Numbered from the stretch's first letter, positions 6,737 through 49,584 are shown. The stretch is DNA of 64,000 nucleotides from Candidatus Poribacteria bacterium (GCA_965222225.1 CBDCTK010000002.1:1952001-2016000); one strand, 5' to 3'. Numbers and translations are program-made. The notes: a model not told the origin generated them from the letters alone.

Positions 6737-6802
6737 GTAGGGTGCGCATTGCGATTAAGCGAGTGGATAACGAGTGCGATAGCGATCCTATACCAGCCTT
6801 TG
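6737..6802 (+). repeat. GTAG REP interrupted by a hairpin element (6753-6782)
   Basis: gtagggtgcgcattgc[gattaagcgagtggataacgagtgcgatagcgatcctat]accagcctttg. Confidence 0.85.
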
Positions 6803-6842
6803 AATGTGCCACTCATCACTAGCCACTCGCCACTGTCGTTCC

Positions 6843-8786
6843 CTACTTCCTGCCCTCAACCAATGAATCGACGACCCCCGGCTCCGCGAGCGTCGAGATG
6901 TCGCCGAGGTCCGAGATATCGCCTTCGGCAATCTTCCGCAGCACGCGCCGCATAATCTTGCCGGAGCGCGTCTTGGGCAGCGCCGGGGTGAATTGAATCT
7001 TGTCGGGCGAGGCGTGCGGACCGATATGCCGACGCACCGCCTGTCTGATACCGGTCTCAACTTCATCCGAGCCGGACTCCCCGGTCATCAACGTGACATA
7101 GGCGTATATCCCTTGCCCCTTGATATCGTGCGGATAGCCGACGACCGCTGCCTCAGCCACCGCGCTGTGTTGTCCGATGGCGCCTTCGACCTCCGCGGTG
7201 CCCAATCGGTGCCCGGAGACGTTTAGCACGTCGTCCACGCGCCCGGTAATCCAGTAATAGCCGTCTTCGTCGCGCCGTACGCCGTCGCCCGTCATGTAGT
7301 AACCGGGGAAACGCTCGAAGTAGGTCTGGCGGAATCGCTCGTGATCGCCGTACACCGTCCGCATAATCCCGGGCCATGGGGACTTGATGCAAAGATAGCC
7401 GCTGGCAGGATTTCCCTCGATCTCAACCCCGCTCTCGTCCAAGATAACCGGCTCGACCCCAAAGAGCGGGAACGTCGCCGATCCCGGTTTTAGCGGAGTC
7501 GCCGCAGGCAATGGCGAAATCAACATGCCGCCGGTTTCCGTTTGCCACCAGGTGTCAATGATAGGGCAGCGCCCCTCGCCGACGACATTGTAGTACCAGA
7601 GCCATTCGGGTTCCTTGATGGGTTCGCCGACGGTGCCCAGCAACCGAAGGGTTGACCTGTCATACTTCCTCACCCATTCATCCCCCTCCTTCATCAAGGC
7701 GCGGAGCGCGGTGGGCGCGGTGTAGAAGATTTCGACGTTATGTTTCTCGACCACCTGCCAGAAACGCCCGAAGTCGGGATGGTTGGGTACGCCCTCAAAC
7801 ATGATGCTGACGGCTCGATTCGCCAGAGGCCCATAGATAATGTAGGAGTGCCCGGTGACCCAGCCGATGTCAGCCGTACACCAGAAGATGTCGCCTTCGT
7901 GGTAGTCGAAGACGTTGTGGTGAGTGTAGGACGCATAAACGAGGTAGCCGCCTGTGGTGTGGAGCACGCCCTTGGGCTTGCCCGTCGAACCGGAGGTGTA
8001 GAGAATGAACAACGGGTCTTCGGCGTCCATCTCCTCCGGCGGACATTCGTCATCGGCGGTCGCCATGGCTTCGTCCCACCAGATGTCGCGCGGTGATTCC
8101 CAATCCACCTCATCGCCGGTGTGGCGTACAACGATGATATGTTCGATGGAAGGGCACTCCGCCGCCGCGGCGTCCGCATTGAGTTTCATCGGGATGCCGC
8201 TGCGGGGTCCGCGAAAGGCGGTGTCCTGCGTAATCAACATCTTGCACTGCGAATCGTTGATGCGGTCTCGCAATGACTCCGCCGAGAACGCTCCGAAAAC
8301 GATGGAGTGCACCGCGCCGATGCGGGCGCACGCCAACATTGCAATCGCCAACTCGGGAACCATCTGCAGGTAGATGCAGACGCGGTCGCCCTTCTTGATG
8401 CCGTGCGATTTCAGTACGTTGGCGAAGCGTTTCACCTCACGCAACAGTTCGCTGTAGGTGAAGGTTTTGTCCGCCGACGGATCGTTGCCCTCCCAGATAA
8501 TCGCGGTGTCGCCGCCGTGCCCAGCCTCAACGTGGCGGTCGAGGCAGTTGTAGGAGGCGTTCAGTGTGCCGCCCTCGAACCACTTTATATGCGCGTTAAC
8601 AAAGTCGTACTCTCGGACGTTATCCCATTTCTTGAACCACGAAATTCGTTCGGCGATATTCGCCCAGAACGCCTCCGGGTTTTTTATGGATTCTTCGTAG
8701 ATTTCTTTATACTGTTCGATGCTGCTCACGTGGGCAGTGTTGATGGGGTAATGCGTATCCCCCGGCGGGAATATTTTCGTAGCCAT
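6843..8786 (-). CDS. acs: Acetate--CoA ligase
   Basis: [21 protein letters not shown] and [12 protein letters not shown] motifs; ATG at 8786 with a GGAGGG RBS. Confidence 0.96.
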
Positions 8787-8807
8787 AAGTCCCTCCAAAC
8801 GTCGGTA

Positions 8808-19043: not shown

Positions 19044-19298
19044 TTAGTGATTTACTTTCTAAATATATGCGGTAAGTGTTGTGCGCAGGTGCAGTTAGAA
19101 ACCGCACCTACCGGCGATTCTTGCAAGTAAAGGAAGTCGCGACCTGGAGAAGATCTCTATCGCACTCACTGTGGGATCTTCTATCGCTTTCGTTATCCAC
19201 TCAGTTGATCGTTCGCTTGATCTCCTACAAGTAATGATGGTGTGTGTTTATATTCTTGTAAGCAGAAACCCGGGTTACGTATGAATGAGGAGGAAAAG

Positions 19299-24205: not shown

Positions 24206-24850
24206 GGAGTGCGCTTGGTGGACGGTAAGAGGAGGGATAGGGGATTCGTCGGTTGCCGGTTGATCGCTGCATAACGGACATGTTTCGTGCAAATAACGAG
24301 GTCGCGACCTGGGGGGATCTCTATCGCACTCATTATCCATTCGTTTGATCGCTCCTACAAGTGATGGCGGACGGGGGAGTTCTATCGATCAACGAAGGCG
24401 ATAGGAATTCTTACTCACTGTTTATTCTTTTGAGCCCACCCTACGATTGAACAGAAATATTTGGTCAATCTTGAACTTTGGAGTGTATCTGAAATGAATC
24501 CGTGCTTGCGATGCGCAAACTAACAGATCAAGCGAGCGAATAGCGAGTAGGACAAACTATCGCCCTCCCTATCCAGTCGGTTGATCGTTTCTTTCCCGGT
24601 CAGTGGCAGGGGTTCCGTTGGGTTTCACTATGCTTCACAAGGATTGAGCGCCATAGAGCGTCAGAACTTGGGTGGAACGCCGCGCGTTCCATTGGTTGGT
24701 GCCGTTCAACCCAACCAACGAACTTCGGAGTGCACATGAAGAGTAACCGTGCCTGCAATGCGCAAACTAACAGTTTGCGGTACAAAAATCGGTGGCGGAT
24801 GTCTAGAATCTTGTAATTAGCAACTTGGGTTATCTATTACTGAGGAGGAA

Positions 24851-25700: not shown

Positions 25701-26500
25701 GGTGTACGCAGTTGGTGGGCGGTTAGAGACGCATTTAGTGGTTCGATGGTTGCCAGTTTCACGGGACGTGAAAGATATGCTCTGTGGATTTAAAGCTAAG
25801 TGGTTTAATCTCTGAAGATAGAGGGCCCGAGGTTTGCGTATCCTAGTCTACTGACAGAGAGACGCGCACAGACGGCAACCGCACATGGCACTCCGCTGGA
25901 TCGCAAGACGGTCATAGAGCCACGTTCTATCAACATGACGCTCCGCTGGAGCGTGACTGTCGTATTCCTATGGCTAGCTGTTGGTCGGGACTTTCTCTCC
26001 AAGGGAGAACGAGTGAGAAATTAATGATGGACAATCAATTCCAACATACATGAAATACTTTGCGCAAAAACCCTTTAGTGGTTTACTCGATAAGCGTTTA
26101 ATGCGAATATGGAGGTCGCGATTCGTAGAGGGATATACTATCGCCCGCCTTAATCAGTCGGTTGATCGCTCCGACAGCGAGAGGTCGGATGATTGCACCG
26201 GACAGAGAGTTGGGCGGGGCAAGGGGATCTCTATCGATCAACTGACCGAATAGGGAAGGCGATAGATTATCTTTTAACCGTCTGGTCTTTCTGGTTGACC
26301 ATTGAAAAAGTCTCGAGCGGTTTCTGGTGCGATATAGCCTGTCACTCGTCGCTCTTTCAAAGGCTGGTGCGCAGTGCACACCCTACAGACTTTAGTGTTG
26401 TACAGAGTCGAGCTATCGCACTCACTTCCATTCGCTTGATCCCGTACAGGGGATGGGTGCATGTGAATGTGATGACAGGTTTGGGAGAGGAAACTTCCAT

Positions 26501-32404: not shown

Positions 32405-33010
32405 TCAATGAGAGGAGACAATCCGCTCTGTTGCCCACTTTATTAACGGGATGGTTAAGATTGCGACGCCGACGCCTAACAGAACGTTGCCAACGGTGAG
32501 ATAGAAAAATCTGTGCTTGTGGGTCTTGTCTCTTAATCTCCGTAGAATTAGAAACCCGACGATTGCTAAGATGCTTGCGACTATGAACTTTTGGTCGTTT
32601 GACCAAGAGTCAGTGAAGAGATGGAAGATTATCATTATTGCCGTGAACACGAAACAGCTAATTGCTACGGCGATGAGATCGTTGGGAGATATTTTTTCCA
32701 TACGCGGTGCTAATACAACCTGTCGAAAAAGGCGCTGACAAAGATGGCTGCGTTCGTTCCAGTGACAGCCGCTGCGATTGCGGCGTAATAAAAGAGATGT
32801 TTATAACGTTGGTAACTAATCGCCCCAAACCCTAGAATGCCGCGGAATGTGAGGGCATGTCCGATAATGTGGGAGGTATCAGTGTCGGTATTCGCCGTGG
32901 TGATTGGAGCAGATACGCCCACTATGTTCACAACGGCGATTATAACCCGTATACGTATAAGGAAATCTGGCGCTTTATCTGGGGAGTTCATTGAAGTCAG
33001 AGCGAACTTA
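32405..33010 (-). pseudogene. Degraded membrane-protein gene, copy B
   Basis: ORFs 32405..32701 and 32710..33045 appear to be halves of one gene. Confidence 0.6.
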
Positions 33011-33350
33011 CCATGTTGCGTCAACGATGAACGATGCCAGTGCATTAGAAATGACGGTCAAGCGTTGTTACGTTGAAAACTATATTCAGCACGCAAAGCA
33101 TACCATACTCACGCAACAGAATTATCAAGAATGTCCGCACACAAGAGAGACAATGTTTGTTTTCGTTTCAACGAGGTTGTGGATGACGCGGTTGTCGGAG
33201 AAAACCGGCTCTCAGCGATGCGGATAGTATAGCGCGCCTCGTGCGTTATGTAAAAACTTACCTTTCGGCGGTAATGGCGTGGAATCCGGGGATCGCTGCG
33301 TACGGCTGCAGGGCACAATCGGTCTCGGAGAATGGCGTTGACGGGTTAAA

Positions 33351-34035
33351 GAATTCCTATCGATCAACTGACCGAATAGGGAAGGCGATAGGAATTCTTG
33401 CTCGCTGTAAAATCTCTATCGCACTCGCTAATCGCTCGCTTGACTGGCCGCGACCGGGAGAGGGAGCTCTATCGCAGTCATTATCCATTCCTTTGATCCT
33501 ACAAGAAATGGTGGGCGGCGCCCACCCTACAGGAGCTCTATCGCGCGGGATTTGCCGCGGGAATCGGTGCGGACAGAGTCGGGGCAAGATGCCCCTCCTA
33601 CGGTGTATTTGTTTGTATCCAGCGAGAAGAACGGCGGTGCAGGATGCGCACCTTACAACGGCTAAAGGGCGGTGCGGGGGAACCTTAGGGGATTTCTATC
33701 GCACGGGATCTACTATCGCCCTCACTATTCGTTCGGTTGATCGTTATCCATTCGTTTGATTCCCTCCTACAAATTGGTTAATCGCCCGTTGTCCAGTCGA
33801 AAAAGGACATTCTTTGTCTGGTAACTCGATTGTCATCTGTGCGATAATATGACACTGATAAGGTATTTGGACTACCCCGGATTGGTCAGATTTTCTACCT
33901 CAAGGGATTTGCTATAGGAACCCTATCCGGACTTGCTATCGCACGGGATTTTCTATCGCGGTCACTAATCGGTCGGCTGAGGGGTCGCGACCGGGAGGTC
34001 GCTCCTACAAGAAATCATTCATTCGCTTGATCCTT
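33351..34035. repeat. Dense cluster of hairpin elements and GTAG REPs
   Basis: Full copies at 33362 (reverse), 33416, 33469, 33713 and 33953; intact REPs at 33577-33601 and 33983-34008. Confidence 0.88.
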
Positions 34036-34054
34036 CCTAGGAGAACCTGACACA

Positions 34055-34996
34055 ATGTATAGCGCTGCAAAAATCTTTGAACAGATTCCGAACTTCCCGT
34101 CCTGTCATGCGTCAACGATTGCGGAGATGCCCGACGGAGAGCTGCTTGCCGCATGGTATGCCGGATCGCGAGAAGGGGCGAAAGATGTGGCGATCTTTAC
34201 CTCCCGACGGACATACGGGGGTGAACGCTGGATGCAGCCGGAAATGGTTGTGAACACTCCGAATTGCTCGGAAGGCAACCCTGTCTTGTTTGTCGATGCG
34301 AACCGTCAGATCTGGCTGTTCTACGTTACGATGTATGGCAACCATTGGAAACAGTGCAAGATGTATTACCAGAAGTCGAGCGCGATGGGAAATAGTTGGG
34401 ATGAGAGAGGTGTTCTCCGCGATGAGTTGGGGTGGATGACGCGCAACAAACCGCTCTATCTCTCAAACGGCGAAATCTTGCTGCCGGTCTATGATGAACG
34501 CAATTGGCATTCAATGGTGATGATTTCCGGCAATGGCGGCGAGACATGGAACACGTATGGAGATTTGTCGAGCCCGAAGGGCGTCATCCAGCCAACCGTT
34601 GTTCAGCGGGATGACGGTAGTTTGCTGATGCTAATGCGCAGTCGGGATGGCGAGATTTGGCGTTCAACCTCCAATGATTTGGGACAGAGCTGGGAGGCGG
34701 CACACCCAACGGATCTGCCGAATCCCAACTGCGGAGTTGATATGGCGCGCTTGCACAATGGAAACATCGCTCTCGTTTACAATGACACACGGCGTGGGCG
34801 AACACCTCTGACAGTCGCGCTATCTATCGACGAAGGGGAAACGTGGGGATACAAACAACATCTCGAAATCGAGGAGGGAGAATACTCCTATCCCGCCATT
34901 ATTCAAGCCCAAGACGGCGGTATCCATATCACCTATACCTACCGACGCATCAGCATCATGCACGTTGAAGTCGATGAGGCGTGGATTCGCGACTAA
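34055..34996 (+). CDS. BNR-repeat sialidase-like protein
   Basis: Asp-boxes S.NGGETW, S.DLGQSW, S.DEGETW; HASTI and EYSYP. Confidence 0.85.
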   Translation: MYSAAKIFEQIPNFPSCHASTIAEMPDGELLAAWYAGSREGAKDVAIFTSRRTYGGERWMQPEMVVNTPNCSEGNPVLFVDANRQIWLFYVTMYGNHWKQCKMYYQKSSAMGNSWDERGVLRDELGWMTRNKPLYLSNGEILLPVYDERNWHSMVMISGNGGETWNTYGDLSSPKGVIQPTVVQRDDGSLLMLMRSRDGEIWRSTSNDLGQSWEAAHPTDLPNPNCGVDMARLHNGNIALVYNDTRRGRTPLTVALSIDEGETWGYKQHLEIEEGEYSYPAIIQAQDGGIHITYTYRRISIMHVEVDEAWIRD

Positions 34997-35087
34997 GAGC
35001 CTGTTTTGAATAATCGGTGGCAAAGCCATTTGTGGTCATTTGTAGGGAGTTTTTCATGTTTTTATTGTTGTCTGCTGCGTACCTGTA

Positions 35088-35365
35088 GGATCTCTATCGC
35101 AATGGAATCTCTATCGCGGTCGCTATTTGCTCCCTTGATCCTTCCTTAATCAGTCGGTTGATCCTCATTCAGTTGCTTGATGGTCGCGACCGGGAGGTCG
35201 CTCCTACGGGATAGCTTTAGGCGGGGCAAGATGGGATCTCTATCGCACTCGCAGAAAGGCTGGTAAAATCTCAATCAGAATCTTCTATCGCCATCACAAT
35301 GGGATCTCTATCAAGAATTCCTATCGGGATTCTCTATCGCACTCGCTATCCGCTCGCTTGATCAT
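35088..35365. repeat. Hairpin-element cluster
   Basis: Full copies at 35111 and 35334, with many GATCTCTATC fragments. Confidence 0.88.
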
Positions 35366-36146
35366 CCGCGACGGGCACGTATTCCGGAAAGACCTTCGGA
35401 TAACGGCGTCCGGTTGAGACCTGACGCGTTGCCGCATCAATATAGCATACACTGAATGCTCGCCGCGGACGATTCGTGGTGTTGACCTCCGAGCGGTGCA
35501 ACGTCCAGTTGTGGAGCAGCGCGACCTCTCCCATCTCCATCTCCAGATAAAGCCGCTTCTCGTTCGGTGCGTGGATCGCTCGCTCCTCGGGAGATAACAA
35601 ATCGCCTTTTTCGGGGATGGGGCTTTTGTGCGACCCCGGAATAATTTGCAGACAGCCGTTGGCGACGCTCGTCGCATCCATCGCGGTCCAGATTGTCACC
35701 TTTGGCGGAATGCTCAACCTCCAGCCGCCTGCGCCATCTTGATGCCAATTGATGGGGATCCCTCGCCCCGCAGGCTTGTTGAAGAACATCGTCCGAAAGG
35801 CGGAGATCCCCTCGCCGATAATCTTCCGTGTAATGTCCCGAAACAGCGGGTGTTGTATGTAAGGGAGAAACAATGGGTCCTGTTCAAGGTCTTGAACTTT
35901 TCGGTAGTTTAGCGTAGAACCCTTCAACACCTTTGTCTGCTTCGATAATTCCTGATGGCCGGCTGACGGGCATAACTGCATGAGCATGTTGTCGTAGCGA
36001 ATCTTCCCCAGCATGATATCATCAATACGCTGGCAAAGTGCTTTAATCTCTTCGTCCGGTGCGACTTTGCCCAAACGTACATAGCCCTGTTCCTGAAATG
36101 TCGCAAGCTCGTCGTTAGTCAAGATGGGACCGTGCAGCTTTGTCAT
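35346..36146 (-). CDS. Phytanoyl-CoA dioxygenase (PhyH) family
   Basis: WHQD, NGCL.IIPGSH, LHRSE.N and RRA motifs. Confidence 0.9.
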   Translation of the reverse strand: MTKLHGPILTNDELATFQEQGYVRLGKVAPDEEIKALCQRIDDIMLGKIRYDNMLMQLCPSAGHQELSKQTKVLKGSTLNYRKVQDLEQDPLFLPYIQHPLFRDITRKIIGEGISAFRTMFFNKPAGRGIPINWHQDGAGGWRLSIPPKVTIWTAMDATSVANGCLQIIPGSHKSPIPEKGDLLSPEERAIHAPNEKRLYLEMEMGEVALLHNWTLHRSEVNTTNRPRRAFSVCYIDAATRQVSTGRRYPKVFPEYVPVADDQASG

Positions 36147-36319
36147 CGTAGCGCCTCCTGAGAGCGTATGAGGGATATTTGGGTGTATCTACGGGAACGT
36201 GTGGAGTTGGGTTTCGCGGTGCTCTTTGGGATTTCTATCATTTGCTTGATTCCGCCTTACAACCGGCTGTTGAAAAAGGAGCGGGCGCGGAGACCGCGCC
36301 CCTACGGGGGAGGCACGAT

Positions 36320-36547
36320 CGGTCGGTCAGTTGATGATCGCGACCGGGAGGGAGGATTTACTATCGCCCTCACTATCCGTTCGCTTGATCGCTCCTACAG
36401 GGCGGGTTTAGCTATGGGATTGCTATCGCACTCGCTATCCGCTCGGTTGATCGATAGAGATCTTGATAGCAAAGAAGCAGCTGACTGATAGGGAACAAGA
36501 GTTACTATCGCGTTCGTTATCCACTCACTTGATCGCGCGCTTGATCC
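36320..36547. repeat. Hairpin-element cluster
   Basis: Full copies at 36361, 36423 and 36505. Confidence 0.88.
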
Positions 36548-36565
36548 CGTGTGTTCAATTCGGCG

Positions 36566-38443
36566 CTAGCGGGGGAAGTCCCACAACAGTATCGTGCCGT
36601 CGAGGCCCGCACTCACCAGTGTGCTGCCGTCCGAGCTAAAAACGAGGCTGCGGACCCACTCACTGTGTGCCTTCAGTGTCTTCCGGTGCGCACCGGTGTC
36701 GGCGTCCCAAAAATCGATGCTGCCGTCCGTGCCCCCAGTTGCTACTTCGCCGCCATTCGGGGTGAAAACCACACTCATGGCACCCATTTCCGGTTGAAGC
36801 GTGTGGCGATTCGCGCCTGTCTTGGTGTCCCAGAGCCGCACGGTTTTGTCGCCGCTAACGCTTGCCAGCGCGCCGCCGTCCGGACTGAAGGCGACGCTAA
36901 CGATGTCCAACTCATGCCCCTTCAGTGTGTGTAGAGGGGTGCCCTCTGCCGTATCAAATAGACGAATCGTATAGTCGTCGCTACCGCTCGCCAGCAGTTT
37001 ACCATCGGCGCTGAACGCGAGACTGGTGCGAACCGGTCGATATATGGTCATCGGTACACGTGCGGTTTCCCATTTGAGCGATTTCAGTTCCGCGCCTGTT
37101 TTGGCGTCCCACAGCGTGGCGGAACTGACGCCATCTCCGCTGGCGAACATGGAGCCGTCGGAACTGTATGCAAAGATAACGTCATCTCCGGCATCGGGTA
37201 CCAAGGTTCTCAGTTCGCTGCCTGTCATAACATCCCAGAGTCTAATGCTGTGAAAATCGTCTCCCCTCACCAATGTTTGTCCATCTGCGCTAAAGACGAA
37301 ATTGGGCGACAGGGACATATCGTGCAGAAACGAACGCTTGTATGCCCCCGTGACAGCATCCCACACACGAATGGGGGATCTTCCGCCCGCACTTGCCAGC
37401 GTCGTGCCATCCTGGCTGATAGCCACGAAATCGAACGAGTCGAGATGCCCTCCCATGCTACCCAAGTGTGCGCCTGTTGCTGTTTTCCACAGGTTGATGG
37501 TGGTACCCGCGGTCGCCATTCGCGTCCCATCGGGGCTGAACGCAATCGCGATAATCCTATCCGTATGCCTTCGCAGCGTTCGCAGAAGTTCCCCCGTGGC
37601 GGCATCCCACAATCGGGCAGAATTGTCGCTGTACCCGCACGCCAGCGTGCTTCCATCCGGGCTGAATGTCATGCACCCGACCCAAGTCTCCCAATCCTCC
37701 AGTTGACGCAGATGATTGCCGGTGCCGACATCCCACAAACGAATACTATCGCGTCCACTCCCACTTGCCAGCATCGATCCGTCCGGGCTAAATGCAACGC
37801 TCGAAATGTACTCCGTATGTCCTACCAGGGCGCGCAGATGTTCTCCCGTTGACGCATCCCATACGTCAATGTTGTTGTTGGCAAAACTCCAACTTGCCAG
37901 CATTGTGCTATTCGGGCTGAATACCGCACCTACGCCCCTAGACGACATATCTTCCTGTGTCCGCGCATCGAATGACTGTTCCTCCTCACCCGTCAAGGTA
38001 TCCCAAAAACGGACGGTATTGTCAAAATCTACGCTTCCCAGTGTGGAGCCGTCACGACTAAAAATCACGTCGATGATTCTCGACGTGTGACCCTCCAACG
38101 TGCGCAGATGCGCGCCTGTTGAAGCATTCCAGAAACGAATGGTTCCGTCCGAACTTCCACTCGCCAATACACTCCCATCCGGGCTATAGGCTAAGCACCA
38201 GACAACACCTGCATGGGCAGCGAACAGGGCGGCTTCCTTACGGTTCGATGTGTCGTATATCCAGATCCCGATGCCTGTTCCCACCGCGAGCCGAGTGCCA
38301 TCGGGCGAATACTGTATTTGGGTAATCTTACCGTTTCCAATGCGCAATCTAGCGCCGTCGGGCAGTCCCGATTGAGGGAATTCTTGGGCGGCGCCCAGTG
38401 TGGAGAGCACAAAAAGTGATAGTAAGGTCAAAAATATCTTCAT
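36566..38443 (-). CDS. Secreted WD40-repeat protein
   Basis: Signal peptide, GLPDGARLRIGNG motif and WD repeats. Confidence 0.9.
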   Translation of the reverse strand: MKIFLTLLSLFVLSTLGAAQEFPQSGLPDGARLRIGNGKITQIQYSPDGTRLAVGTGIGIWIYDTSNRKEAALFAAHAGVVWCLAYSPDGSVLASGSSDGTIRFWNASTGAHLRTLEGHTSRIIDVIFSRDGSTLGSVDFDNTVRFWDTLTGEEEQSFDARTQEDMSSRGVGAVFSPNSTMLASWSFANNNIDVWDASTGEHLRALVGHTEYISSVAFSPDGSMLASGSGRDSIRLWDVGTGNHLRQLEDWETWVGCMTFSPDGSTLACGYSDNSARLWDAATGELLRTLRRHTDRIIAIAFSPDGTRMATAGTTINLWKTATGAHLGSMGGHLDSFDFVAISQDGTTLASAGGRSPIRVWDAVTGAYKRSFLHDMSLSPNFVFSADGQTLVRGDDFHSIRLWDVMTGSELRTLVPDAGDDVIFAYSSDGSMFASGDGVSSATLWDAKTGAELKSLKWETARVPMTIYRPVRTSLAFSADGKLLASGSDDYTIRLFDTAEGTPLHTLKGHELDIVSVAFSPDGGALASVSGDKTVRLWDTKTGANRHTLQPEMGAMSVVFTPNGGEVATGGTDGSIDFWDADTGAHRKTLKAHSEWVRSLVFSSDGSTLVSAGLDGTILLWDFPR

Positions 38444-38609
38444 CTCAATACCTCCTACATTTTATGGATAATGGGAGATTGTTAAATCCCCGACTGCTCA
38501 ATACAAAGACTCAAAGGCTGGTGCACAGGGGAACTCTATCGCGCTCATTATTCATTCGCTTGATCGTTATTCACTCAGTTGATCGGTCGTGTTGTGCATG
38601 GATGTTGGG

Positions 38610-39107
38610 TCAGAAACGGGGAGCGGTGAAACGAATTAGCAGACCTATTCCGACTACGACAACTAGCACCCACAGCACTATATTGCCTGTCTCTCTATCA
38701 CTTTGCTCGCGCCGCTTGTGCATTTCAATCTCCGTCCTGAGGTTGGCCATTTCCACCTCTGCATCCGCTAGTGCAAGTTTAAGTTTGGCATTCTCTTCCC
38801 TCAATTGCTTTATTGTCCTGCCCTGATTCTGTTCGCCATCTTGACCGGGTAAGCGTTTATCAGGTACCGTGGATATGGGTGTCTCAACCTTGGCGATGGT
38901 TTCAGGTATGATGTCTCCAATCTTTGGCTCGGACTGCACGTCGGCTAGCAGAACGAGACTCCAGGTGCCCAAGTAGGTGAACACACAAAACACAACAAGG
39001 ATTAGCATGAATCGCGAAGGGTACCCCTGAACGTGCATAATGTTGTTTCCTCGCGAAATACTCAGTCGCGAGACATGGGGAGAGCCTCGTATTCGTGTCG
39101 TTTTCAT
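38610..39107 (-). CDS. Hypothetical membrane protein with a coiled coil
   Basis: N- and C-terminal TM segments around a heptad region; start uncertain. Confidence 0.55.
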   Translation of the reverse strand: MKTTRIRGSPHVSRLSISRGNNIMHVQGYPSRFMLILVVFCVFTYLGTWSLVLLADVQSEPKIGDIIPETIAKVETPISTVPDKRLPGQDGEQNQGRTIKQLREENAKLKLALADAEVEMANLRTEIEMHKRREQSDRETGNIVLWVLVVVVGIGLLIRFTAPRF

Positions 39108-39200
39108 AGGTTAACCCGGTTTTTGCGATTTGTCAACTGACACACCAGCATAGTCAGACACAAGTCATGTTGTATGTGTCGGTCGCTATTCATTCCCTTA

Positions 39201-39459
39201 GAGCCTGCTTGAAAAATAGATGTCAAAGCCATTCTGAAGCTGTTGAGTGCTATAATCTGTCGGTCCGCTGGGGCTTAAGTGCGTGGGGTTTCGGCGTTTC
39301 TACACACCTTCAAGATCTCTATCGCACTCGCTAATCGCTCGGTTGATCCCACTCTGGGGCTTTTAGATGCTGGTGCCCTGTGCGCACCCTACAAGAGCCC
39401 TGATGAAAACCTTGGTTTTGAGGCGAAATGTGCGACAAAATGAATTTTCAAGCAGGCTC
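39201..39459. mobile_element. MITE with nested REP and hairpin element
   Basis: TIRs gagcctgcttgaaaa / ttttcaagcaggctc with TTA flanks. Confidence 0.65.
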
Positions 39460-39479
39460 TTAATGGCGCGCTACAAAAA

Positions 39480-40005
39480 CTCAAAAGCTGGTGCAGGATC
39501 TCTTTCGCAGTCATTGTTCATTCCTTTGAACGGTGCCCACCCTCCATCTTGCTCGTTTGAGGATGGTGGGCGGGTGATTTCAGCGCTACGCGAAGGATGC
39601 TAGTCGCGAAGCAGATTGTTACACGGTGGTCAGCGGGGCAAGGAGATCTCTATCGTCCTCGCTATCCGCTCGGTTGATCCCCGCCTACAGGGACGGATAG
39701 AGTATATCTGTTTGTATCTTCGGTATCCAATGAAGTTGGGTTTCGCTGTGCTCAACCCAACCTACGTCGTTGATTGGGTGTCTACCACATTGTGCTCCTC
39801 GCGAGCGCTTGAGAGAAACATGTACCCGTTCTATCGACATGGCGCACCTCCCGAGCCAGGAGTGGAGACGGTACGGGGTCGGAGGGATTTCTATTGGGGG
39901 TTCTATCCCAGTCACTATTCGCTCCATTGATGGTCGCGATTCGGAGATCGCTCCTACGGGGCGGGATTTACTATCGCCCTCCCTAATCAGTCGGTTGATC
40001 CCCAT
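39480..40005. repeat. REP/hairpin-element cluster
   Basis: Full copies at 39502, 39650, 39903 and 39971. Confidence 0.85.
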
Positions 40006-40158
40006 ACGGGGGATGGGATTTCGCGCCACTTTTGCTTGACTGAGACGGATTATAGTGCCATACTTCTATGGTACGGGAAACGGGAAGGATATCTGCCACG
40101 CCTAGGGGGCGTGACAGGATTCTTGAGGAGTTTCAGATAAAAAACAGTGAGGTGATTA

Positions 40159-41355
40159 ATGATGTTCACAAGTCGGATCGCAACTTTGGTTATTGTATGC
40201 CTGATTGCAGCCCCAGTTCTCGTGTTGTCCTCCTGCGATGAACTCGTGTCTATTTTGTCCGGGGGAGACATTGTCGAAGCGCCTGATGCAGTTTCTGTCG
40301 GCGTGGTTCTGCCGCGGACGGGCTATCTCGGTCCGGGCGAATTTGGTCCCGGCGCGCTTGTTATGGAGAACGGTTTTAACTTGGCGCTCGAAGAGATTAG
40401 CTACTCGCAACCCGAGAAGGCAATCCTGAAGTTCATCATTGAGGACGATCGAAGCACCGTAGACGGCGCGGTTGCCGCATTCAACACACTGATACATCAA
40501 GACAAAGTGCCGGTAATTCTCGGAGTTTGGACGTCAGAGGTTGCGCAGACCGTCTTTTCGATTGCGCAGGAGAATCGGGTTGTGGCTTTCAGTCCTGTCG
40601 TGGTAGCAGGCGGGTTGACCGAAATTGGCGACTTTATTTTTCGCGCGGCGCAACCCACGGATGTGCTTATTCCCGCGGGGGTTAAGGTGACGCAGGAGCA
40701 ACTCGGCTATCAACGGGTGGCGACAATTGCCGACTCTGACGATCATTTCGCCCGGACCAGCAGCGAAGAGCTAGAGCAGACGCTAAGTGATTCCGGCGTC
40801 GAGATATTGCAAGCCGAGAACTTCCAATCAGGTGAAACAGACTTTAACGCACAACTTACTCGCATAAAGGACGCTGATCCGGAGGCGATCTTCGTGTCAG
40901 CTCAACAGATTGAGACGATTCTAATCTTTAAGCAGGCTCGCGCACTTGGCATTACCTCCGATGTTCCGTTTATCACTGCGTCGCTGTCGTCGGACGACAT
41001 AGAAAGTGCCGAGGGGGCTGCCGAGGGAGCAATTACTTTTGCGTCATGGAGCAGCAAAACGGACACGCCGGGAAACCAAGCGTTTGTCGAGAAATACCGC
41101 GCCCGGTACGGACGGGAGCCTAGCGTATGGTCTGCGCTGTCGTATGCGTCCGTTCATATCCTAGCCGAAGCCGTCGCGAATGCCGAATCGACGGATTCAG
41201 TCGGGATTCGAGACGCTTTGGCGAATATTAGCGATTTTGACACCGTTTTGGGGCAGTTTTCGTTTAATGAGGTCGGCGACGGGGCTTACGATCCAAAGGT
41301 ACTGATCGTGAGGGATGGTAGGCTTGAGGCGTTCGGAGAAGGCGGCACGCCGTAG
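40159..41355 (+). CDS. LivJ/LivK-like ABC substrate-binding lipoprotein
   Basis: Lipobox LSSC; VGVVLPRTG, IEDD.S, DFIFR, TDFNAQLTRI and GQFSF...GD. Confidence 0.88.
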   Translation: MMFTSRIATLVIVCLIAAPVLVLSSCDELVSILSGGDIVEAPDAVSVGVVLPRTGYLGPGEFGPGALVMENGFNLALEEISYSQPEKAILKFIIEDDRSTVDGAVAAFNTLIHQDKVPVILGVWTSEVAQTVFSIAQENRVVAFSPVVVAGGLTEIGDFIFRAAQPTDVLIPAGVKVTQEQLGYQRVATIADSDDHFARTSSEELEQTLSDSGVEILQAENFQSGETDFNAQLTRIKDADPEAIFVSAQQIETILIFKQARALGITSDVPFITASLSSDDIESAEGAAEGAITFASWSSKTDTPGNQAFVEKYRARYGREPSVWSALSYASVHILAEAVANAESTDSVGIRDALANISDFDTVLGQFSFNEVGDGAYDPKVLIVRDGRLEAFGEGGTP

Positions 41356-41639
41356 CGGAACGTGTTAAGTGGAGAGTGACGAGTGGAGAGTGAAACCTAA
41401 CACCTCAATCCAGGCCTAGAGTTGATTGTAAAGTTGGGTTTCACTAGATTTGAAAGGGTTCTAAACGGAATCGTGTTCCTGGAAGGGAGTGTGAGGACGG
41501 GTGTTTATGACTGCAGCCGTTCAACCCAACCTACGTGTTGACTACAACTTTCCGATAAGAGCCTGTTTGAATAATCGGTGGCAAAGCAATTTCGGTCACT
41601 TTGGGCGCGGCTTTTTCATGCTTTTGTGGTAGCCTGCTA

Positions 41640-42066
41640 CATACCTGTAGGATCTCTATCGCACTCACTATCCGTTCGTTTGATCCCCGCAGGGGCTTTA
41701 GATTTGTTGTGTTGTCTTCGTTCTATAAACCTTTCGCACCTCCGGTGCTTACAAAGGCTGGTGGGCGGGGGACCTCTTTCGCACAGGATCTACTATCGCC
41801 CTCCCTAATCAGTCGGTTGATCCCAACCTACGGACCTGATGCCTATGGGGGGCGGGGCAAGAAGATCTCTATCGCACTCACTATCCAGTCGATTGATCCC
41901 CTCCTACGAGTTAGATGAGGTAAGTTCTATGGGATCTCTATCGATCAACCGACTGTATAGAATCAACTGAGCGGATGGCGAAGGCAATAGCAAATCCTGC
42001 TCATTATCCATTCCCTTGTTCGCACGTTGTGGCCGTGAAAGGTTGGTGCGCGATGCGCACCCTACA
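41640..42066. repeat. REP/hairpin-element cluster
   Basis: Full copies at 41656, 41793 and 41869; intact REP at 42045-42065. Confidence 0.85.
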
Positions 42067-42067
42067 A

Positions 42068-43240
42068 CTAAAACGCCTCGAACGCTCCGTCGCGCGCAAT
42101 CAGAACGATTGGGTCATACACCGCGTCGCCGACGGCTTCGAAAGAGAAGCTGCCGAGAACGGTCTCAAAGTCGCTTGTGCCAGCCAACGCCTCCCGTATC
42201 GCACCCGAATCGGTTGACCCAGCCTCAGAAATCGCATTCACTAAGAGTTTCACGGACGTGTATGACAATGCGCTAAAAACCGAGGGCGCCGCGTCGTATT
42301 TCGCGGTGTAGTTCCGGACAAACGCCTGATTCCCCGGAGTTTCCGCCGTACCGGACCAAGCGGTAAACGTAATTGCCCCCTCCGCGGCTGTGCCCGCCTC
42401 CTGCACTTCGCCCAAACTCAGCAACGGTACAATTAAAGGTACATCGTCGGGAATCCCGACTTCGCGCCCCTGAACGAGTATCTTCGTCTGGTCAAACGAG
42501 TTCGCCGCGACAAGAACCGCCTCCGGATTCAAGTCCCGAATCCGCGTTAACTGGGCACGCAGATCTGCCTCGCGGGTAGTGAACGTCTCTGTCGTCAAAA
42601 TATCAACGCCAATCGCCGTGAGCGTCTCCGAATACACGTCATTGGTGCTGCGGGAGAACAGATCGAGGGTGTCAACTATAATTGCGACGCGCTGATACCC
42701 CAGTTTTTCTTGTGTAAGGTGTACACCAGGTGGGATCAGTTTGTCCACGGTCAGGTTCACGCGAAAAACAAAGTCCCCAAGCGCGCTCAGTCCTTGCGAC
42801 GCGGATGTCGGCGCAATTGCCACAATTTGATTCTCTTCCGCCACCGGGAAGGCTATCTCCGTTAGGGTCAATGTGGCGGGGCCCAGAAGCGCGACCACCC
42901 CGTCCTCGTGGATCAGCTTGTTGTATGCCGCAATTGCGCCCTCTGGTGTGCTCTTATTATCCTCAAGGATGAAGCGGATCTGCGGCGGCGCGAGCTGTGT
43001 GCTGTTAATCTCGTCGCGCGCCAAATAGAAGCCGTTTAGATACCTGATTATGTCCGGGTCGTCGGGGCCGTCGACGAAGGCGCCGGACTGCGGCATCACC
43101 ACGCCGATGAGGAGTTCATCGGGCAACGGCGTCGGCGCTTCGCCGCCGGAGAGAACCGACACCAATTCCTCACAGCCGCAAAGCCCCAAGATGAGCGCGG
43201 CGCTTATAACCAATAAACAGATTTTCTTGATAGGATTCAC
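42068..43240 (-). CDS. LivJ/LivK-like ABC substrate-binding lipoprotein (paralogue)
   Basis: Same motifs as 40159..41355. Confidence 0.88.
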   Translation of the reverse strand: MNPIKKICLLVISAALILGLCGCEELVSVLSGGEAPTPLPDELLIGVVMPQSGAFVDGPDDPDIIRYLNGFYLARDEINSTQLAPPQIRFILEDNKSTPEGAIAAYNKLIHEDGVVALLGPATLTLTEIAFPVAEENQIVAIAPTSASQGLSALGDFVFRVNLTVDKLIPPGVHLTQEKLGYQRVAIIVDTLDLFSRSTNDVYSETLTAIGVDILTTETFTTREADLRAQLTRIRDLNPEAVLVAANSFDQTKILVQGREVGIPDDVPLIVPLLSLGEVQEAGTAAEGAITFTAWSGTAETPGNQAFVRNYTAKYDAAPSVFSALSYTSVKLLVNAISEAGSTDSGAIREALAGTSDFETVLGSFSFEAVGDAVYDPIVLIARDGAFEAF

Positions 43241-46868: not shown

Positions 46869-47629
46869 TGCCAAAAACAGATTTGACGGTAGATGAATGG
46901 GTGGCGGCGCTTGGTCACGCGGAATTTCCAACGGTCATCGTTGAAGGCGATGACGACATGCGAATATATCGGTGGCTGGAAGAGCGCGTTAGTAATCAGA
47001 AGGTAGATGTGCAGCCTGTAGGCGGTAGAAAGACTCTTCTCTCGGTATACGCGAGGAGAGATGAATATGCTGATTTGCCAGTTGCTTTTTTAGCCGACAG
47101 GGATTTGTGGTTGTTCTCGGGGATCCCGCCGGACTATCCAGACATCATTTGGACCCAAGGGTACAGCATTGAGAATGATCTCTACGCAGGTGCCGATTTG
47201 GAAAAGTTGTTAGATGCCCATGAAGTTCAAGAACACCGACAGCTATTAGATTCAATCATCAAATGGTTTGCGTTTGAAGTCGAAGAGTATTTGGAAGGAA
47301 GGGATGCGCACGTTGATATACACATCAACAGAGTTGTACCGCCAGGTTGGACCGAAATGGATAGAGATTTCTGCACATGTCGCGGATTTCGTTTGCCTAA
47401 TGAGGAACTCCATCAAGAAATAAAGGACGAATATCAGTTTAAGCTGAGAGGCAAATCGCTGTTTGAGGTACTGGTTCGCTTTCTAAATGCTCCGAGTCGT
47501 GGTTCCAAACATAACACCTTACCACTTCACGAGATTGCGTTGAAGATGACACCATCTCACGAATTGATGAATCGGTTGATAAAGGAGATAGACCGCACAA
47601 TCGCGGAACACACGCCAGTGAGTCGATGA
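46865..47629 (+). CDS. DUF4435 TOPRIM-like protein (AriB-like)
   Basis: IVEGDDD, GGR, ADRD, YSIEN and RGK; coupled to the ATPase stop. Confidence 0.82.
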   Translation: MMPKTDLTVDEWVAALGHAEFPTVIVEGDDDMRIYRWLEERVSNQKVDVQPVGGRKTLLSVYARRDEYADLPVAFLADRDLWLFSGIPPDYPDIIWTQGYSIENDLYAGADLEKLLDAHEVQEHRQLLDSIIKWFAFEVEEYLEGRDAHVDIHINRVVPPGWTEMDRDFCTCRGFRLPNEELHQEIKDEYQFKLRGKSLFEVLVRFLNAPSRGSKHNTLPLHEIALKMTPSHELMNRLIKEIDRTIAEHTPVSR

Positions 47630-47733
47630 AATGAATATAGCAATACACATGGAATACATAATTGTTTGCTGATGCCAAATCGGCTAAGTAGGAATCGGGA
47701 ACTATCAAAAATTGATGTGTAAGGATACATATC

Positions 47734-48897
47734 ATGGCTAAATCTGTGAAAGCACTCATTACGCCGGAAGTTCTCAAGTGGACGCGTGAAAGACGCATCA
47801 AAATGTCCCTTGACTATGCGGTGAAGAAATTAGATGTAAAGCCCGATCAACTTGAGAAGTGGGAAGCAGGGACGGATCAGCCTTCCTTCGCGCAATTGAA
47901 GGCGATCGCCAAGCTCTACAGAACGCACATCTCTGTTTTCTATTTGCCGGAGCCACCTACTGAATTTAAACTGCTCGCGGATCACCGCAGATTGCCGGAG
48001 TCTCTCATTGCAGACGATGAGCAAGCGTATAAATTGAATTCCAACGTTCTAGAGGCGTTTGAGCGGCGAGAGGCGATTATTGAATTTTATGGATTGTTGG
48101 AGGATCCCCCGCCTGAAGTAACGCTGGAGCTGGATGAAACAGATAATCCGGAGCGTGCCGCACAAGAAATTAGAGAATTTCTTCAGTTTAATACTGGACT
48201 GCTACAACAATGTAATGATGATCGTGCCACGTTGAAATTTTGGAGAGAACGACTCGAAGCTAAGGGAATTCTCGTGTGTCAGACATCCGTCAACCCACAT
48301 CTCTCCATTGCACTGCAAACTGTGCGAGGGTTTTGCATCGCACAGAAACCGTTTCCGGTGATTGTGCTCAACCCCAAAGACAGCCCTTACGGTCGCGTAT
48401 TTACCATCATTCACGAGTTGGTACACGTTGCACTTGGGAAAAGCGTCATACAGAACACGGGATTTAGGGGGCATGCGAATCTGAACCCGACTGAAGTCTT
48501 CTGCAATGAGGTGGCTGGTGAAGTCTTGGTTCCCAAGGATGAATTGTTAGAGAGAGTTAATCTGCATACGCTTGAAACAGACCTTCCTAAACTCTCCAAA
48601 CACTTTCATGTGAGTCGCGGGGCCATTATGACACGGTTGCGAACAATTGGTTATATTTCGAAACCAACCTACGAAGCGTATATACAGAGCCAACAGGAAA
48701 AGTATAAAGATAGTCCACCCACCGGCGGACCTATACCGTATCATACGCGGCTGCTTAATGCTGCCGGAGAGCACTTCGCGCGAACCGCTTTTACGGCTTA
48801 TTACGAGCAGAAAATCACACTCGCCGATTTAGCTGCTTCCTTTTCCAAGTGCGATCCAAAACACATTCCCAAACTTGAAAGCGCTATCTTCGCATGA
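47734..48897 (+). CDS. XRE HTH + ImmA/IrrE metallopeptidase
   Basis: N-terminal HTH; FTIIHELVH (HExxH); EVFCN..AG..LVP. Confidence 0.9.
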   Translation: MAKSVKALITPEVLKWTRERRIKMSLDYAVKKLDVKPDQLEKWEAGTDQPSFAQLKAIAKLYRTHISVFYLPEPPTEFKLLADHRRLPESLIADDEQAYKLNSNVLEAFERREAIIEFYGLLEDPPPEVTLELDETDNPERAAQEIREFLQFNTGLLQQCNDDRATLKFWRERLEAKGILVCQTSVNPHLSIALQTVRGFCIAQKPFPVIVLNPKDSPYGRVFTIIHELVHVALGKSVIQNTGFRGHANLNPTEVFCNEVAGEVLVPKDELLERVNLHTLETDLPKLSKHFHVSRGAIMTRLRTIGYISKPTYEAYIQSQQEKYKDSPPTGGPIPYHTRLLNAAGEHFARTAFTAYYEQKITLADLAASFSKCDPKHIPKLESAIFA

Positions 48898-49391
48898 ATT
48901 CGCTGTTCAATCAAAACATGGTCGTTTACAGCCTTGACCTCAGTGCGCTGTTTGCTGCTTTTAACGAGCGGTATCCAATCGCAAATTTCCCCGCTTTTTG
49001 GTGCAAATTCGAGGAATTAATCAAAAACGATCGACTGAAAATTGCGGAAATTGCTTTCGATGAAGCACTCAGAGACGAAGGCGTTAAGAAATGGTGTAAA
49101 GAGAATCAATTAAGACCAAATTTCCGATGGGCAACTAATGACCCTATACAGCGTAAGGTTAGTGAGATACTAAAGCTATTCCCAAAACTGCTAGACGATC
49201 GGCGGGGAAAATCAGGCGACGACCCATGGGTGATTGCTTTAGCAATGGTATCCCAGAACTGCATCGTCGTGACCGAAGAAAAGCCGACGGGTAGTCCGCT
49301 TAGACCTAAAATCCCTGATGTCTGTGCTCATTTTAACCTTCAGTGTATTCAACTGGTCGAACTTGTACAAAGAGAGAATTGGGTCTTTTAG
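48894..49391 (+). CDS. DUF4411 PIN-like protein
   Basis: YSLD, YP...FP.FW, DPWVIALA, VVTEE and KIPDVC; ATGA overlap. Confidence 0.85.
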   Translation: MNSLFNQNMVVYSLDLSALFAAFNERYPIANFPAFWCKFEELIKNDRLKIAEIAFDEALRDEGVKKWCKENQLRPNFRWATNDPIQRKVSEILKLFPKLLDDRRGKSGDDPWVIALAMVSQNCIVVTEEKPTGSPLRPKIPDVCAHFNLQCIQLVELVQRENWVF

Positions 49392-49522
49392 CGAAGAATC
49401 CGGTAGGCAACTGAACTTTCGGGGTGGGAGTATGTCGGATGATGTGACGCTGGCGCCTAGTGAATTCAGCGCGACTCGGAACATGCTGATTCGGTAGCAG
49501 CACAAGGTAACAAGCCAGAATA

Positions 49523-49584
49523 AAAGGCTGGTGCGCAGGGGATCTCTATCGCAGTCATTGTTCATTCCCTTGATCGCACCCTAC
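49523..49584 (-). repeat. REP with a hairpin element (49546-49575) in its loop
   Basis: aaaggctggtgcgca[ggggatctctatcgc...ttgatc]gcaccctac. Confidence 0.9.

Follow-up and report, generated by a model that had tools for sequence, protein, structure and literature searches.

The window described here is a stretch of 64,000 nt of a 5.70-Mb genome, in 2 contigs, of a sponge-symbiont Candidatus Poribacteria bacterium (C2:1952001-2016000). Its intergenic gaps carry repetitive extragenic palindromes (REPs) of several families, most of them tagged GTAG, and these occur both intact and interrupted by a non-coding hairpin unit of 35–36 nt, the element of this report. In the CTATCGC...TTGATC sense, labelled T, the element has the consensus (G)GGATYT-CTATCGC-N1N2-TC-N3N4-TATYC-N4'N3'-TC-N2'N1'-TTGA(TC); the opposite strand, GATCAA...GCGATAG, is labelled F. 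The inserted unit comes in two equally long registers: targets of the form ..G^C receive GGATCT..TTGAT, and those of the form ..GA^TC receive GGGATCT..TTGA (the caret marks the point of entry). We find that the element is very probably mobile and enters REPs with a fixed polarity.

The window contains 41 full units with at most 3 mismatches at 19 fixed positions, of which the + strand carries 34 and the - strand 7, and a 14-nt core motif matches it 37 times at up to 3 mismatches, against 5.76 expected matches and a maximum of 12 in shuffled sequence (0 of 100 shuffles reach 37). The whole genome holds 1161 copies at up to 4 mismatches in the 19 fixed positions (496, 333, 154, 79 and 99 copies with 0, 1, 2, 3 and 4 mismatches, respectively), and a block-shuffled chromosome holds 0. 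Genome-wide counts below refer to the 1062 copies with up to 3 mismatches unless another total is given. From CTATCGC to TTGATC the span is exactly 30 nt in 749 of 762 strict genome matches. The 35-nt unit is a real repeat, chance being excluded, and it is among the smallest mobile DNA units known. It is mostly extragenic, with 69 of 1059 copies wholly within crude open reading frame (ORF) calls, and the window has 0 Rfam matches at gathering score. Nested repeats occupy much of the intergenic DNA in this genome and its closest relatives, and short-read contigs break at them.

The commonest GTAG-initiated 12-mers of the genome mark the REP families GTAGGAGCGATC (143 copies), GTAGGGTGCGCA (129), GTAGGGTGGGCA (91) and GTAGGTTGGGTT (90), and interrupted forms are found among the frequent GTAG 12-mers as well (GTAGGGTGCGAT, 61 copies; GTAGGGTGGGAT, 26; GTAGGCGGGGAT, 25). 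Family 2 is mostly GCGATC..GATCGC genome-wide, not GCGACC..GGTCGC. We defined a paralogous empty site as the left 9-mer of a copy followed by its right 9-mer within 0–6 nt; by this definition 628 of the 1062 copies have an empty paralogue, and 489 still do when partners overlapping another copy are dropped. Thus gctggtgcgcag[TG]cgcaccctac (80 empty sites) recurs with the same flanks and 36 nt in place of TG, gaggctggtg^cgcagtgcgcaccctac (77 empty sites) with 35 nt inserted and zero loss, gtcgcgattcggaga^tcgctcctac (57 empty sites) with a 35-nt insert, and ggcggggcaag[ATG]ccccgcctac (16 empty sites) with a 36-nt insert. Filled REPs with both arms recognizable number 61, 41, 12, 11, 28 and 21 for six family consensuses, the last two sets overlapping, and have inserts of 34–38 nt, 0–5 REP bases lost and no duplication. 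The commonest gapless insert lengths are 35 nt, in 40 cases, and 36 nt, in 31, some insertions losing zero bases; secondary gapless peaks at 41 and 47 nt come from nested partial modules. No target duplication was seen at 70 distinct gapless sites or at the orthologous gains described below. A model in which GATC is duplicated was rejected, the left junction at ggaga^tcgc reading ggagaGGGATC and not ggagatc.

Two side observations concern the same repeats. Some frequent 12-mers, such as GTAGTGATGATG and GTAGCTTGTAGC, occur in about 46–49 near-identical copies with long conserved flanks and probably belong to an insertion sequence. The family-1 REP sits within a unit of about 130–150 nt, TTCATGTTTTCATTGTTGGCTGCTACATACCTGT - GCCCC hairpin - TTTTAGAGGCTGG - GTAG REP - CAAACTGTACTTTTCAAACAGGCTCT, within which the element has two distinct hot spots; window 41620-41700 and 39290-39400 are examples.

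The orientation of insertion within REPs is close to absolute. Strict arm tags for six families place the GTAG-proximal arm beside TTGATC in 150 copies and at the opposite end of the element in 1. Because a replication bias shared by REPs and element predicts only about 60% agreement, the polarity is a property of insertion itself. On F, a GTAG is found no more than 30 nt upstream of 367 of 1095 copies and is absent from that range in the other 728. Its spacing is fixed as well: TCAA follows its G at a distance of 11 nt in 115 copies and of 10 nt in 42 (157 in total). In this main register the target always contributes exactly 10 nt, the 10-nt distance class being made up of targets that end in GA, and at least 24 different GTAG arm sequences occur at it. 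Two smaller peaks, one of 64 copies at 6–8 nt and one of 41 at 18 nt, correspond to entry directly behind GTAG or GTAGG and to entry in the distal arm, respectively, and the control tag CTAC (55 copies) gives no comparable peak. A REP-arm tag is present within 16 nt downstream of 14.1% of the 1062 copies and of 0.27% of 200,000 random intergenic positions, a 52-fold enrichment, and CTAC lies within 0–14 nt of 26.9% of copies compared with 4.8% of random intergenic positions.

These results extend an original prediction made from the window sequence alone, which had held that the element interrupts unrelated GTAG-REP families, that intact and interrupted versions coexist and that a few REP bases are lost with no target duplication. 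The REP sequences it quoted are found at, or within a few bases of, the places it gave (Table 1), and the losses amount to 0–5 nt in the junction tables of the six families. The order that it had read at most sites, GTAG, REP arm, GATCAA..GCGATAG and AGATCCC, holds genome-wide, and so does the enrichment in REPs over other intergenic DNA. None of the three outcomes that would have told against the prediction, namely a lack of empty-site alleles, random polarity and no enrichment in REPs, was obtained. Some details need adjusting. The family-1 REP at 6737-6802 is indeed interrupted, and the element sits in its GTAG-distal arm, not in the loop. What had been called a fourth family, at 24526, is indeed cut; it is the hairpin CGCAAACTAACAGTTTGCG(G/C)TAC, whose tag is GTAC or CTAC and not strictly GTAG, and which is hit at AACAG^ in both orientations. 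As for the two exceptions to the common order, 24526 stands as an exception in polarity, and 26236 proves to be an opposite-sense copy at CTATCG^ of a copy that lies in a family-3 REP.

Table 1. Intact and interrupted REPs, and element copies beside or within them, in the window (positions counted from its first nucleotide).
Feature	Position	Strand	Remarks
Family-1 REP, GTAG-first, element in second (GTAG-distal) arm	6737..6802	+	Unit 6753-6789, CTATCGC..TTGATC sense on -
Family-2 REP (gtcgcgacctggag ... ctcctac), host copy split by a nested second copy	19136..19228	+	Nested copy 19174-19210
Family-2 REP, interrupted	24300..24358	+	Unit 24314-24350; TTGATC then gctcctac; 10 nt from GTAG, opposite strand
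Hairpin family CGCAAACTAACAG^TTTGCG, partial GATCAA-sense copy at AACAG^	24513..24586	+	Full copy 24550-24586; polarity exception
Family-2 REP (ggtcgcgattcgtagag ... gctccgac), interrupted	26114..26175	+	Element 26131-26167
Family-3 left arm ggcggggcaag, then 5' module of host copy GGGATCTCTATCG	26218..26272	-	Opposite-sense copy 26236-26272 at CTATCG^; 'palindromic' form
Element, TTGATC directly against CTAC (GTAG-GATCAA on opposite strand)	33462..33502	+	Class entering right after GTAG
Intact family-1b REP GGTGGGCGGCGCCCACCCTAC	33510..33530	+	
Intact family-3 REP GGGGCAAGATGCCCCTCCTAC	33581..33601	+	
Intact family-2 REP GCGACCGGGAGGTCGCTCCTAC	33987..34008	+	Second intact copy 35186-35207
Family-2 REP, interrupted	36335..36398	+	Element 36354-36390
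Element within non-GTAG hairpin (ctacacaccttc / element / ccactctggggc)	39312..39348	+	Second case 41649-41685
Family-3 REP (gcggggcaag ... ccccgcctac), interrupted	39634..39688	+	Element 39643-39679
Nested copy, then ccaacctac = GTAGGTTGGG arm of family 4	41786..41831	+	
Family-3b REP (cggggcaag ... cccctcctac), interrupted	41853..41907	+	Element 41862-41898
Intact family-1 REP GGTGCGCGATGCGCACCCTAC	42045..42065	+	
Family-1 REP (ggtgcgcag ... cgcaccctac), element in loop	49530..49584	+	Element 49539-49575

The element itself is a hairpin, and one of its strands folds better than the other. Four variable dinucleotide positions covary as Watson–Crick pairs, with mutual information of 1.22, 1.11, 0.85 and 0.48 bits, and Watson–Crick combinations are present at the four pairs in 743, 955, 979 and 874 copies. 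The non-Watson–Crick pairs are mostly A-C or C-A in the T sense and so form G.T wobbles on F, where the G.T counts at the four pairs are 253, 35, 35 and 145, versus 14, 25, 20 and 22 on T. The constant TC/TC that separates these pairs likewise reads as tandem G.A on F. The fold of F is ATC-AA-NN-GA-NN-GRATA-NN-GA-NN-GC-GAT, an interrupted stem of 7 bp with tandem G.A pairs, to which structure prediction contributes the outer ATC/GAT helix. The commonest predicted structure of F,.(((..((..((.....))..))..)))........., is shared by 521 of 829 copies, and F is predicted to be more stable than T in 732 of the 829 with RNA parameters and in 600 with DNA parameters. In the 41 window copies, 96.9% of combinations are paired, compared with 76.4% in shuffles (0 of 500 as high) and at most 49% in slid controls, and the covariation score is 0.647 compared with 0.231 in shuffles. 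Because the G.T wobbles and tandem G.A pairs fall on F, and F is the more stable, F is the strand that must fold. The GTAG of the host REPs is read on F as well.

Orientation also follows local strand composition. In 601 of the 845 copies with an absolute skew of at least 0.01, the T sense lies on the locally G-rich strand (71%; Fisher p = 1e-34). The same rule is seen in REP copies (168 of 224) and in copies without nearby GTAG or CTAC (322 of 453), and intact REPs show the same skew sign in 71–83% of cases, in small numbers. Within the window the skew is positive from about 8 to 56 kb, and the excess of copies on the + strand fits the rule. Crude gene calls are co-oriented with the skew in 59% of cases, in support of the assumption made here that the G-rich strand is the leading strand. 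The direction of genes has no predictive value for the orientation of the element: where the neighbours of a gap are co-directional, 354 of 658 copies share their direction. Replication strand bias is described as a hallmark of elements that move single-stranded at the fork (PMC5027513, PMC6006769).

REPs are not the only targets. A partial or nested module adjoins 336 of the 1062 copies, about one third. The element enters itself at recurrent points, namely its loop (TAT^TC), CTATCG^C and its 3' boundary (TTGA^TC), the last of which yields tandem copies. Among the nested forms, 44 of 1062 copies are 'palindromic'; these look as if they had terminal inverted repeats (TIRs), and consist of one copy inserted into another. 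A non-GTAG hairpin, cacctgt(CG)^CCCCnCTGGGGC, of the type found beside the IS200-like Y1 gene across Poribacteria, hosts 71 of the 1062 copies, 334 have other flanks, and clean 35-nt insertions also occur in unique DNA. Almost everywhere the point of entry lies directly 3' of G or GA on F, so that GATCAA is regenerated. Complementarity between flanks as a general rule gave a weak signal, with runs of at least 5 bases in 212 of 1062 copies, against 159 when partners were shuffled. The suggestion that the element is a hyperparasite of REPs is too narrow, given the nested or abutting copies, the non-GTAG hairpin and the insertions in unique DNA.

Independent insertion and the spread of already filled REPs both occur. 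Filled family-1 REPs contain 35 distinct stem variants among 61 and several junction positions. One variant, AGTCATTATTCATTCCT, has 51 copies: some occupy family 2, some ..ctcctac sites or other copies of the element, and many share the family-1 REP loop context. Furthermore, an 85-nt block of REP plus element is present in the genome labelled G000 (C2 at about 3105–3107 kb) and absent at the orthologous site of a second species, G019 (C1 at about 3179623). This block is a GTGG-tagged, family-3-like REP that already holds the element and has ATG on both sides; a filled REP has thus moved, or been deleted, as a unit. Since the 51-copy variant stands in a shared REP context and the 85-nt block is gained or lost as a whole, filled REPs keep spreading; this argues against a scar that disarms them, the other reading offered in the original prediction, which is probably wrong given also the range of contexts in which the 51-copy variant is found.

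Comparison between species supplies orthologous empty and filled alleles, which the original prediction had proposed to look for. The genes of the window are syntenic with those of five species of the same genus at 76–96% identity, and most intergenic gaps differ in their repeats and cannot be aligned. Window 33300-34060 is the only stretch that aligns to G019, and all element sites compared there are filled in both, with different stem variants. Elsewhere, the hairpin downstream of an IS200-like Y1 gene is empty in genome G031 (taattcacctgtcgcccctctggggc...) and filled in G019, with identical flanks. Nested gains are seen in both directions between G000 and G019: in the former, a copy common to the two has received a further 36-nt copy of opposite sense at CTATCG^, and the latter has two extra copies inside common copies. 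A comparison of 400 kb of G019 with G000 also shows gains in unique DNA, one of 35 nt and one of about 34 nt, plus larger clusters. Over about 222 kb of the best-aligned G000/G019 blocks, 11 element sites are common, 5 G000 copies and 1 G019 copy face a gap, and 10 G000 and 3 G019 copies face non-element sequence. Paralogous and orthologous empty and filled sites together show that the element is mobile.

At the 11 common sites, the eight stem positions differ at 0.386 per site, compared with 0.062 at the other 22 positions; 3 pairs are identical and 8 differ by several compensatory changes. The stem differences look like replacement, repeated hits at a hot spot or gene conversion, rather than drift. 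Different, internally compensated stem variants at orthologous sites are also seen at window 33462-33498, 33706-33742 and about 33946-33982 relative to G019, with flanks about 90–97% identical. In public reads assembled as contigs (4 of the 22 runs listed, from 4 studies; window 33000-42900), contigs end at the repeats, and the joints listed (15 of 273) are cross-matches between repeats, with no 35-nt skip among them.

Genes for Y1-type or REP-associated tyrosine transposases (RAYTs), which the original prediction had suggested looking for, are present in the host genome, with 5 Y1_Tnp matches. An intact gene of 157 aa passes the NCBIfam IS200/IS605 model (65.8, cut-off 55) and fails REP_Tyr_transpos (30.6, cut-off 80); the nearest solved chains to its protein are the putative transposase 2fyx and the 'transposase' chains 2xm3, 2xma and 2xo6. 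The other matches are a RAYT-like gene of 247 aa, a gene with an in-frame TAG, one between GTAGTAGGCATAC-type REPs and one fragment, which is degraded and bracketed by an inverted pair of elements. At 14 Poribacteria loci the 157-aa gene is flanked, mostly on both sides and in opposite orientations, by arrays of tatacacctgtCGCCCCgctGGGGCtt hairpins, and in genus g1, to which the host belongs, these hairpins beside the gene are hot spots for the element. The element lies on both sides at 2 of the 5 Y1 loci, and the copies at the intact locus are insertions into the hairpin that flanks the gene in element-free genera. In those genera tandem arrays lie on the flanks of the gene, with up to four or five units of about 50–60 nt that end in a GCCCC-AGC-GGGGC hairpin; the layout is REPtron-like, yet the protein scores as IS200/IS605 rather than RAYT. 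A search for a recurrent gene bracketed by inverted element pairs gave no candidate: of 361 neighbouring pairs 150–3000 nt apart, 112 are inverted, and the clusters of enclosed ORFs are inconsistent.

Among 121 Poribacteria genomes searched at up to 2 mismatches, the element is found in 8 of 8 genomes of genus g1, with 727–1438 copies each, and in 4 of 4 genomes of genus g3, which belongs to another family, with 225–249 copies. One genome, G001, has 4 copies, 2 further genomes have single matches, and the other 106 have none. G001 is also the one close relative without a Y1 match, and all four g3 genomes have some Y1 match. A scan of contigs from one genome per species returned Candidatus Poribacteria records only, among the matches listed (80 of 125 stretches). 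In g3 copies, AAGA or AAAA replaces GGGATYT before CTATCGC, and a sample of 40 has CTAC 0–12 nt downstream in 14 and GTAG within 20 nt in none. About 10 of 40 copies in one g3 genome, G003, have GTTGGGTT(T)CGC behind them, a sequence similar to the post-GTAG part of REP family 4 in opposite sense.

The best explanation overall, and on balance a probable one, is that of a 35–36-nt mobile hairpin unit moved in single-stranded form by a Y1 HUH nuclease. The unit would be cut out or copied as single-stranded DNA and then strand-transferred by a nuclease of the IS200/RAYT superfamily. It enters as a discrete piece immediately 3' of G or GA on F, with 0–5 target bases lost and no duplication. Its preferred sites are the point 10 nt after the first G of GTAG, the point right after GTAG(G), the distal REP arm, the hairpin flanking the IS200-like Y1 gene and the element's own loop, 3' boundary and CTATCG^C, with unique DNA used occasionally. 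REPs may be favoured because an enzyme bound to GTAG and the hairpin makes or holds a strand break there; an enzyme so placed would also confine insertion to one strand and one direction. According to published work, TnpA-REP binds GTAG and a hairpin on single-stranded DNA, cuts on either side and transfers strands, the tag bases A3 and G4 select a C/T or C/A cut, and a free 3'-OH resolves the covalent intermediate (PMC3479197, PMC8266576). A Y1 enzyme acting on one hairpin with a cut on each side would release exactly such a unit, and a REP-bound enzyme would account for the polarity, the GTAG register, the lack of duplication and the strand bias. The narrower claim that a Y1 or RAYT enzyme moves the element is tentative, and we would call it plausible rather than probable. 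Rather unlikely, though in keeping with landing 10 nt or directly downstream of GTAG in many REP families, is the more specific version in which the element is a tagless parasite of the REP/RAYT system that borrows GTAG in cis.

Several observations weigh against movement by a Y1 enzyme guided by REPs. A ruler of ten nt from GTAG is confounded with a position just before the loop, since REPs share one architecture, and many targets lack any GTAG. The cuts suggested by the junctions fall after G or GA, unlike the C/T or C/A cuts of characterized RAYTs (PMC3479197, PMC8266576). The junctions are ragged, with inserts of 34–38 nt, losses of 0–5 nt and two registers one base apart, and are less exact than the peel-and-paste of IS608. 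The sign of the replication bias is also opposite to that of IS200/IS605, whose active strand lies on the lagging-strand template (PMC5027513): in 71% of copies F, and with it the GTAG strand of REPs, is on the leading-strand template, the C-rich strand. As to the genes, the 157-aa family is found in 76 of the 121 genomes, including element-free genera (18 of 32 genomes of g4 and 33 of 45 of g6), and the 157-aa query has no match in 2 of the 4 g3 genomes, which carry about 240 copies each. The 247-aa RAYT-like gene, present in 3 of 8 g1 genomes, was rejected as the driver, being found in only 3 of the 121. None of the Y1 families co-distributes with the element across the 121 Poribacteria genomes, and no enzyme is tied to it.

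Three other accounts have to be set against these data. The element could be filler DNA, a repair scar in which a pre-formed copy of about 37 nt is patched, through 1–2-nt microhomology with G or GA at one end and C or TC at the other, into single- or double-strand breaks at hairpins, caused perhaps by a RAYT or by a hairpin nuclease such as SbcCD. The 1–2-nt overlaps with the target (G/ATCAA or GA/TCAA) and the spread of losses and insert lengths would suit this, as would the targets, most of which are hairpins of several unrelated types, one of these being the hairpin of the element itself. End-joining of duplexes would not yield a polarity of 150:1, however, nor would a replication-related strand bias be expected; some insertions lose zero bases; stem variants are inherited in sub-families, such as that of 51 copies, which points to genomic copies as the source and not one template; and composites of REP and element keep spreading, so that the REP is not disabled. 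Together these make patching, the main rival, an improbable account. Alternatively, the element may never have inserted independently, being instead the long loop of a few REP variants amplified by the REP machinery, with a polarity inherited from a few founders. Consistent with this, the 12-mer GTAGGGTGCGAT, in 61 copies, has as its consensus extension a single element variant, a stem variant of 51 copies lies many times in the family-1 loop, and the 85-nt unit of REP plus element is gained or lost between species as a block. The same polarity and 10-nt register in at least 24 GTAG arm sequences argue otherwise, as do the several junctions per family, the 35 stem variants among 61 filled family-1 REPs, the occurrence of one variant across REP families and outside REPs, and the clean orthologous 35-nt gains in unique DNA and inside copies. 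Composite amplification as the sole process is largely refuted, and we regard this account as very unlikely, the least probable of those considered.

Hardly more probable is an RNA-based element, in which F acts as a structured RNA or as the template of a retro-element and copies arise by reverse transcription. Wobbles of the G.U type and tandem G.A pairs are typical of RNA, RNA energy parameters give a clearer predicted fold than DNA ones, and RNA runs contain parts of the window region. G.T and sheared G.A pairs are stable in single-stranded DNA too, however, and the orientation of the element is unlinked to the direction of the flanking genes. No Rfam family reaches gathering score in the window, and no reverse transcriptase was found linked to the element, although no search aimed at reverse transcriptases was made.

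Beside the element, the window contains a few larger repeats. Identical stretches of at least 80 nt lie inverted about 10 kb apart at 4236 (+) and 14397 (-), and may represent a gene duplication or the two ends of some larger mobile element. At about 30217 and 32505 (-), 2.3 kb apart, gene segments that are nearly identical look like tandem paralogues. Internal repeats typical of a WD40/beta-propeller gene lie at 700-3400 (-), with an identical 25-nt stretch at 705, 1323 and 3366.

Beyond the original prediction, the present analysis contributes copy numbers for the whole genome, the identity of the folding strand, the figure of 150:1 for polarity, the register of 10 nt, the strand bias linked to replication, gains at the level of species and the confinement to two genera. 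The movement of very small dispersed repeats has been an open question since their description in cyanobacteria in 2008, and the spread of REPs in vivo is still unproven. With about 1,000 copies per genome, sharp junctions, a defined polarity, register and bias, and gains and losses between sister species, the enzyme, the strand and the cut are testable here with oligonucleotides and a few Y1 proteins. That REP populations can be colonized matters for models in which REPs and RAYTs are stable, vertically inherited replicators. If the element were a tagless parasite, it would be the smallest known transposable unit and a natural reporter of where a Y1 nuclease holds or cuts a REP in vivo, and the same logic could also explain the long-unexplained small dispersed repeats (SDRs) of cyanobacteria.

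These SDRs and the REP/RAYT systems are the closest described relatives of the element; the literature searched gave no published account of the Poribacteria element or of a 35-nt guest inside REPs. Elhai et al. (Genome Res 18:1484) reportedly described in 2008 the non-coding repeats SDR1-8 of Nostoc punctiforme and its relatives, of 21–27 nt, with a covarying hairpin, nesting in other repeats and in one another, and precise insertion. Occupied and empty homologous loci are said to have been found for them, with no transposase assigned. As far as these features go, the two are alike in being non-coding repeats of tens of bases with a covarying hairpin, nesting and empty and filled loci, and they differ in length (35–36 nt here versus 21–27 nt) and in the phylum of the host, Poribacteria here. 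We know of no SDRs with GTAG-REP hosts, absolute polarity, a 10-nt register or a replication bias. The SDR work, and the presence of SDR5 in HIP1, are mentioned in two later papers (PMC4390886, PMC3116915).

REPs are defined by GTAG or GTGG 0–2 nt 5' of the foot of the hairpin (PMC6006769). The element does not carry such a tag as a rule, GTAG lying 0–2 nt before GATCAA in only 64 of 1095 copies. Similar to REPs and REP doublets forming hairpins (REPINs), the element is a short extragenic hairpin of high copy number without target duplication, and strand-specific recognition of a single-stranded hairpin is common to both (PMC3116915, PMC3479197, PMC8266576, PMC6006769, PMC3733652). Both systems also have Y1 HUH genes flanked by hairpins, and the folding strand of the element is the GTAG strand. 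The element differs in that its stems vary freely whereas REPs are near-uniform, that it inserts into REPs and that its apparent cuts are not C/T. Insertion sequences that target REPs, among them IS1397, ISKpn1, ISPpu9/10 and members of the IS110 family, were reportedly surveyed by Tobes and Pareja in 2006. These share with the element landing in REP hairpins and oriented insertion, and differ in being 1–2 kb long with a transposase of their own, where the element has 35 nt and is non-coding.

With the peel-and-paste of IS200/IS605 the element shares the lack of duplication, entry 3' of a short retained target, hairpin recognition and a replication bias (PMC5027513). Because the target stays at the 5' side of the element, the same point can be hit repeatedly, as in the tandem TTGA^TC copies. 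The element has one hairpin, whereas IS200/IS605 members have one at the left end and one at the right; in addition, its junctions are inexact and its bias has the opposite sign. IS200/IS605 miniatures use a fixed tetra- or pentanucleotide target 5' of the left end, and the element shows only a weak preference for G or GA. Nor does it have the TIRs and target-site duplication of a miniature inverted-repeat transposable element. Insertion sequences targeting REPs, and REPs nested in other palindromes, are known (PMC3733652). The nesting of REPs in palindromes treated by Di Nocera et al. is, like the present case, that of a hairpin within a hairpin, with the roles reversed: REPs are the guests there and the hosts here.

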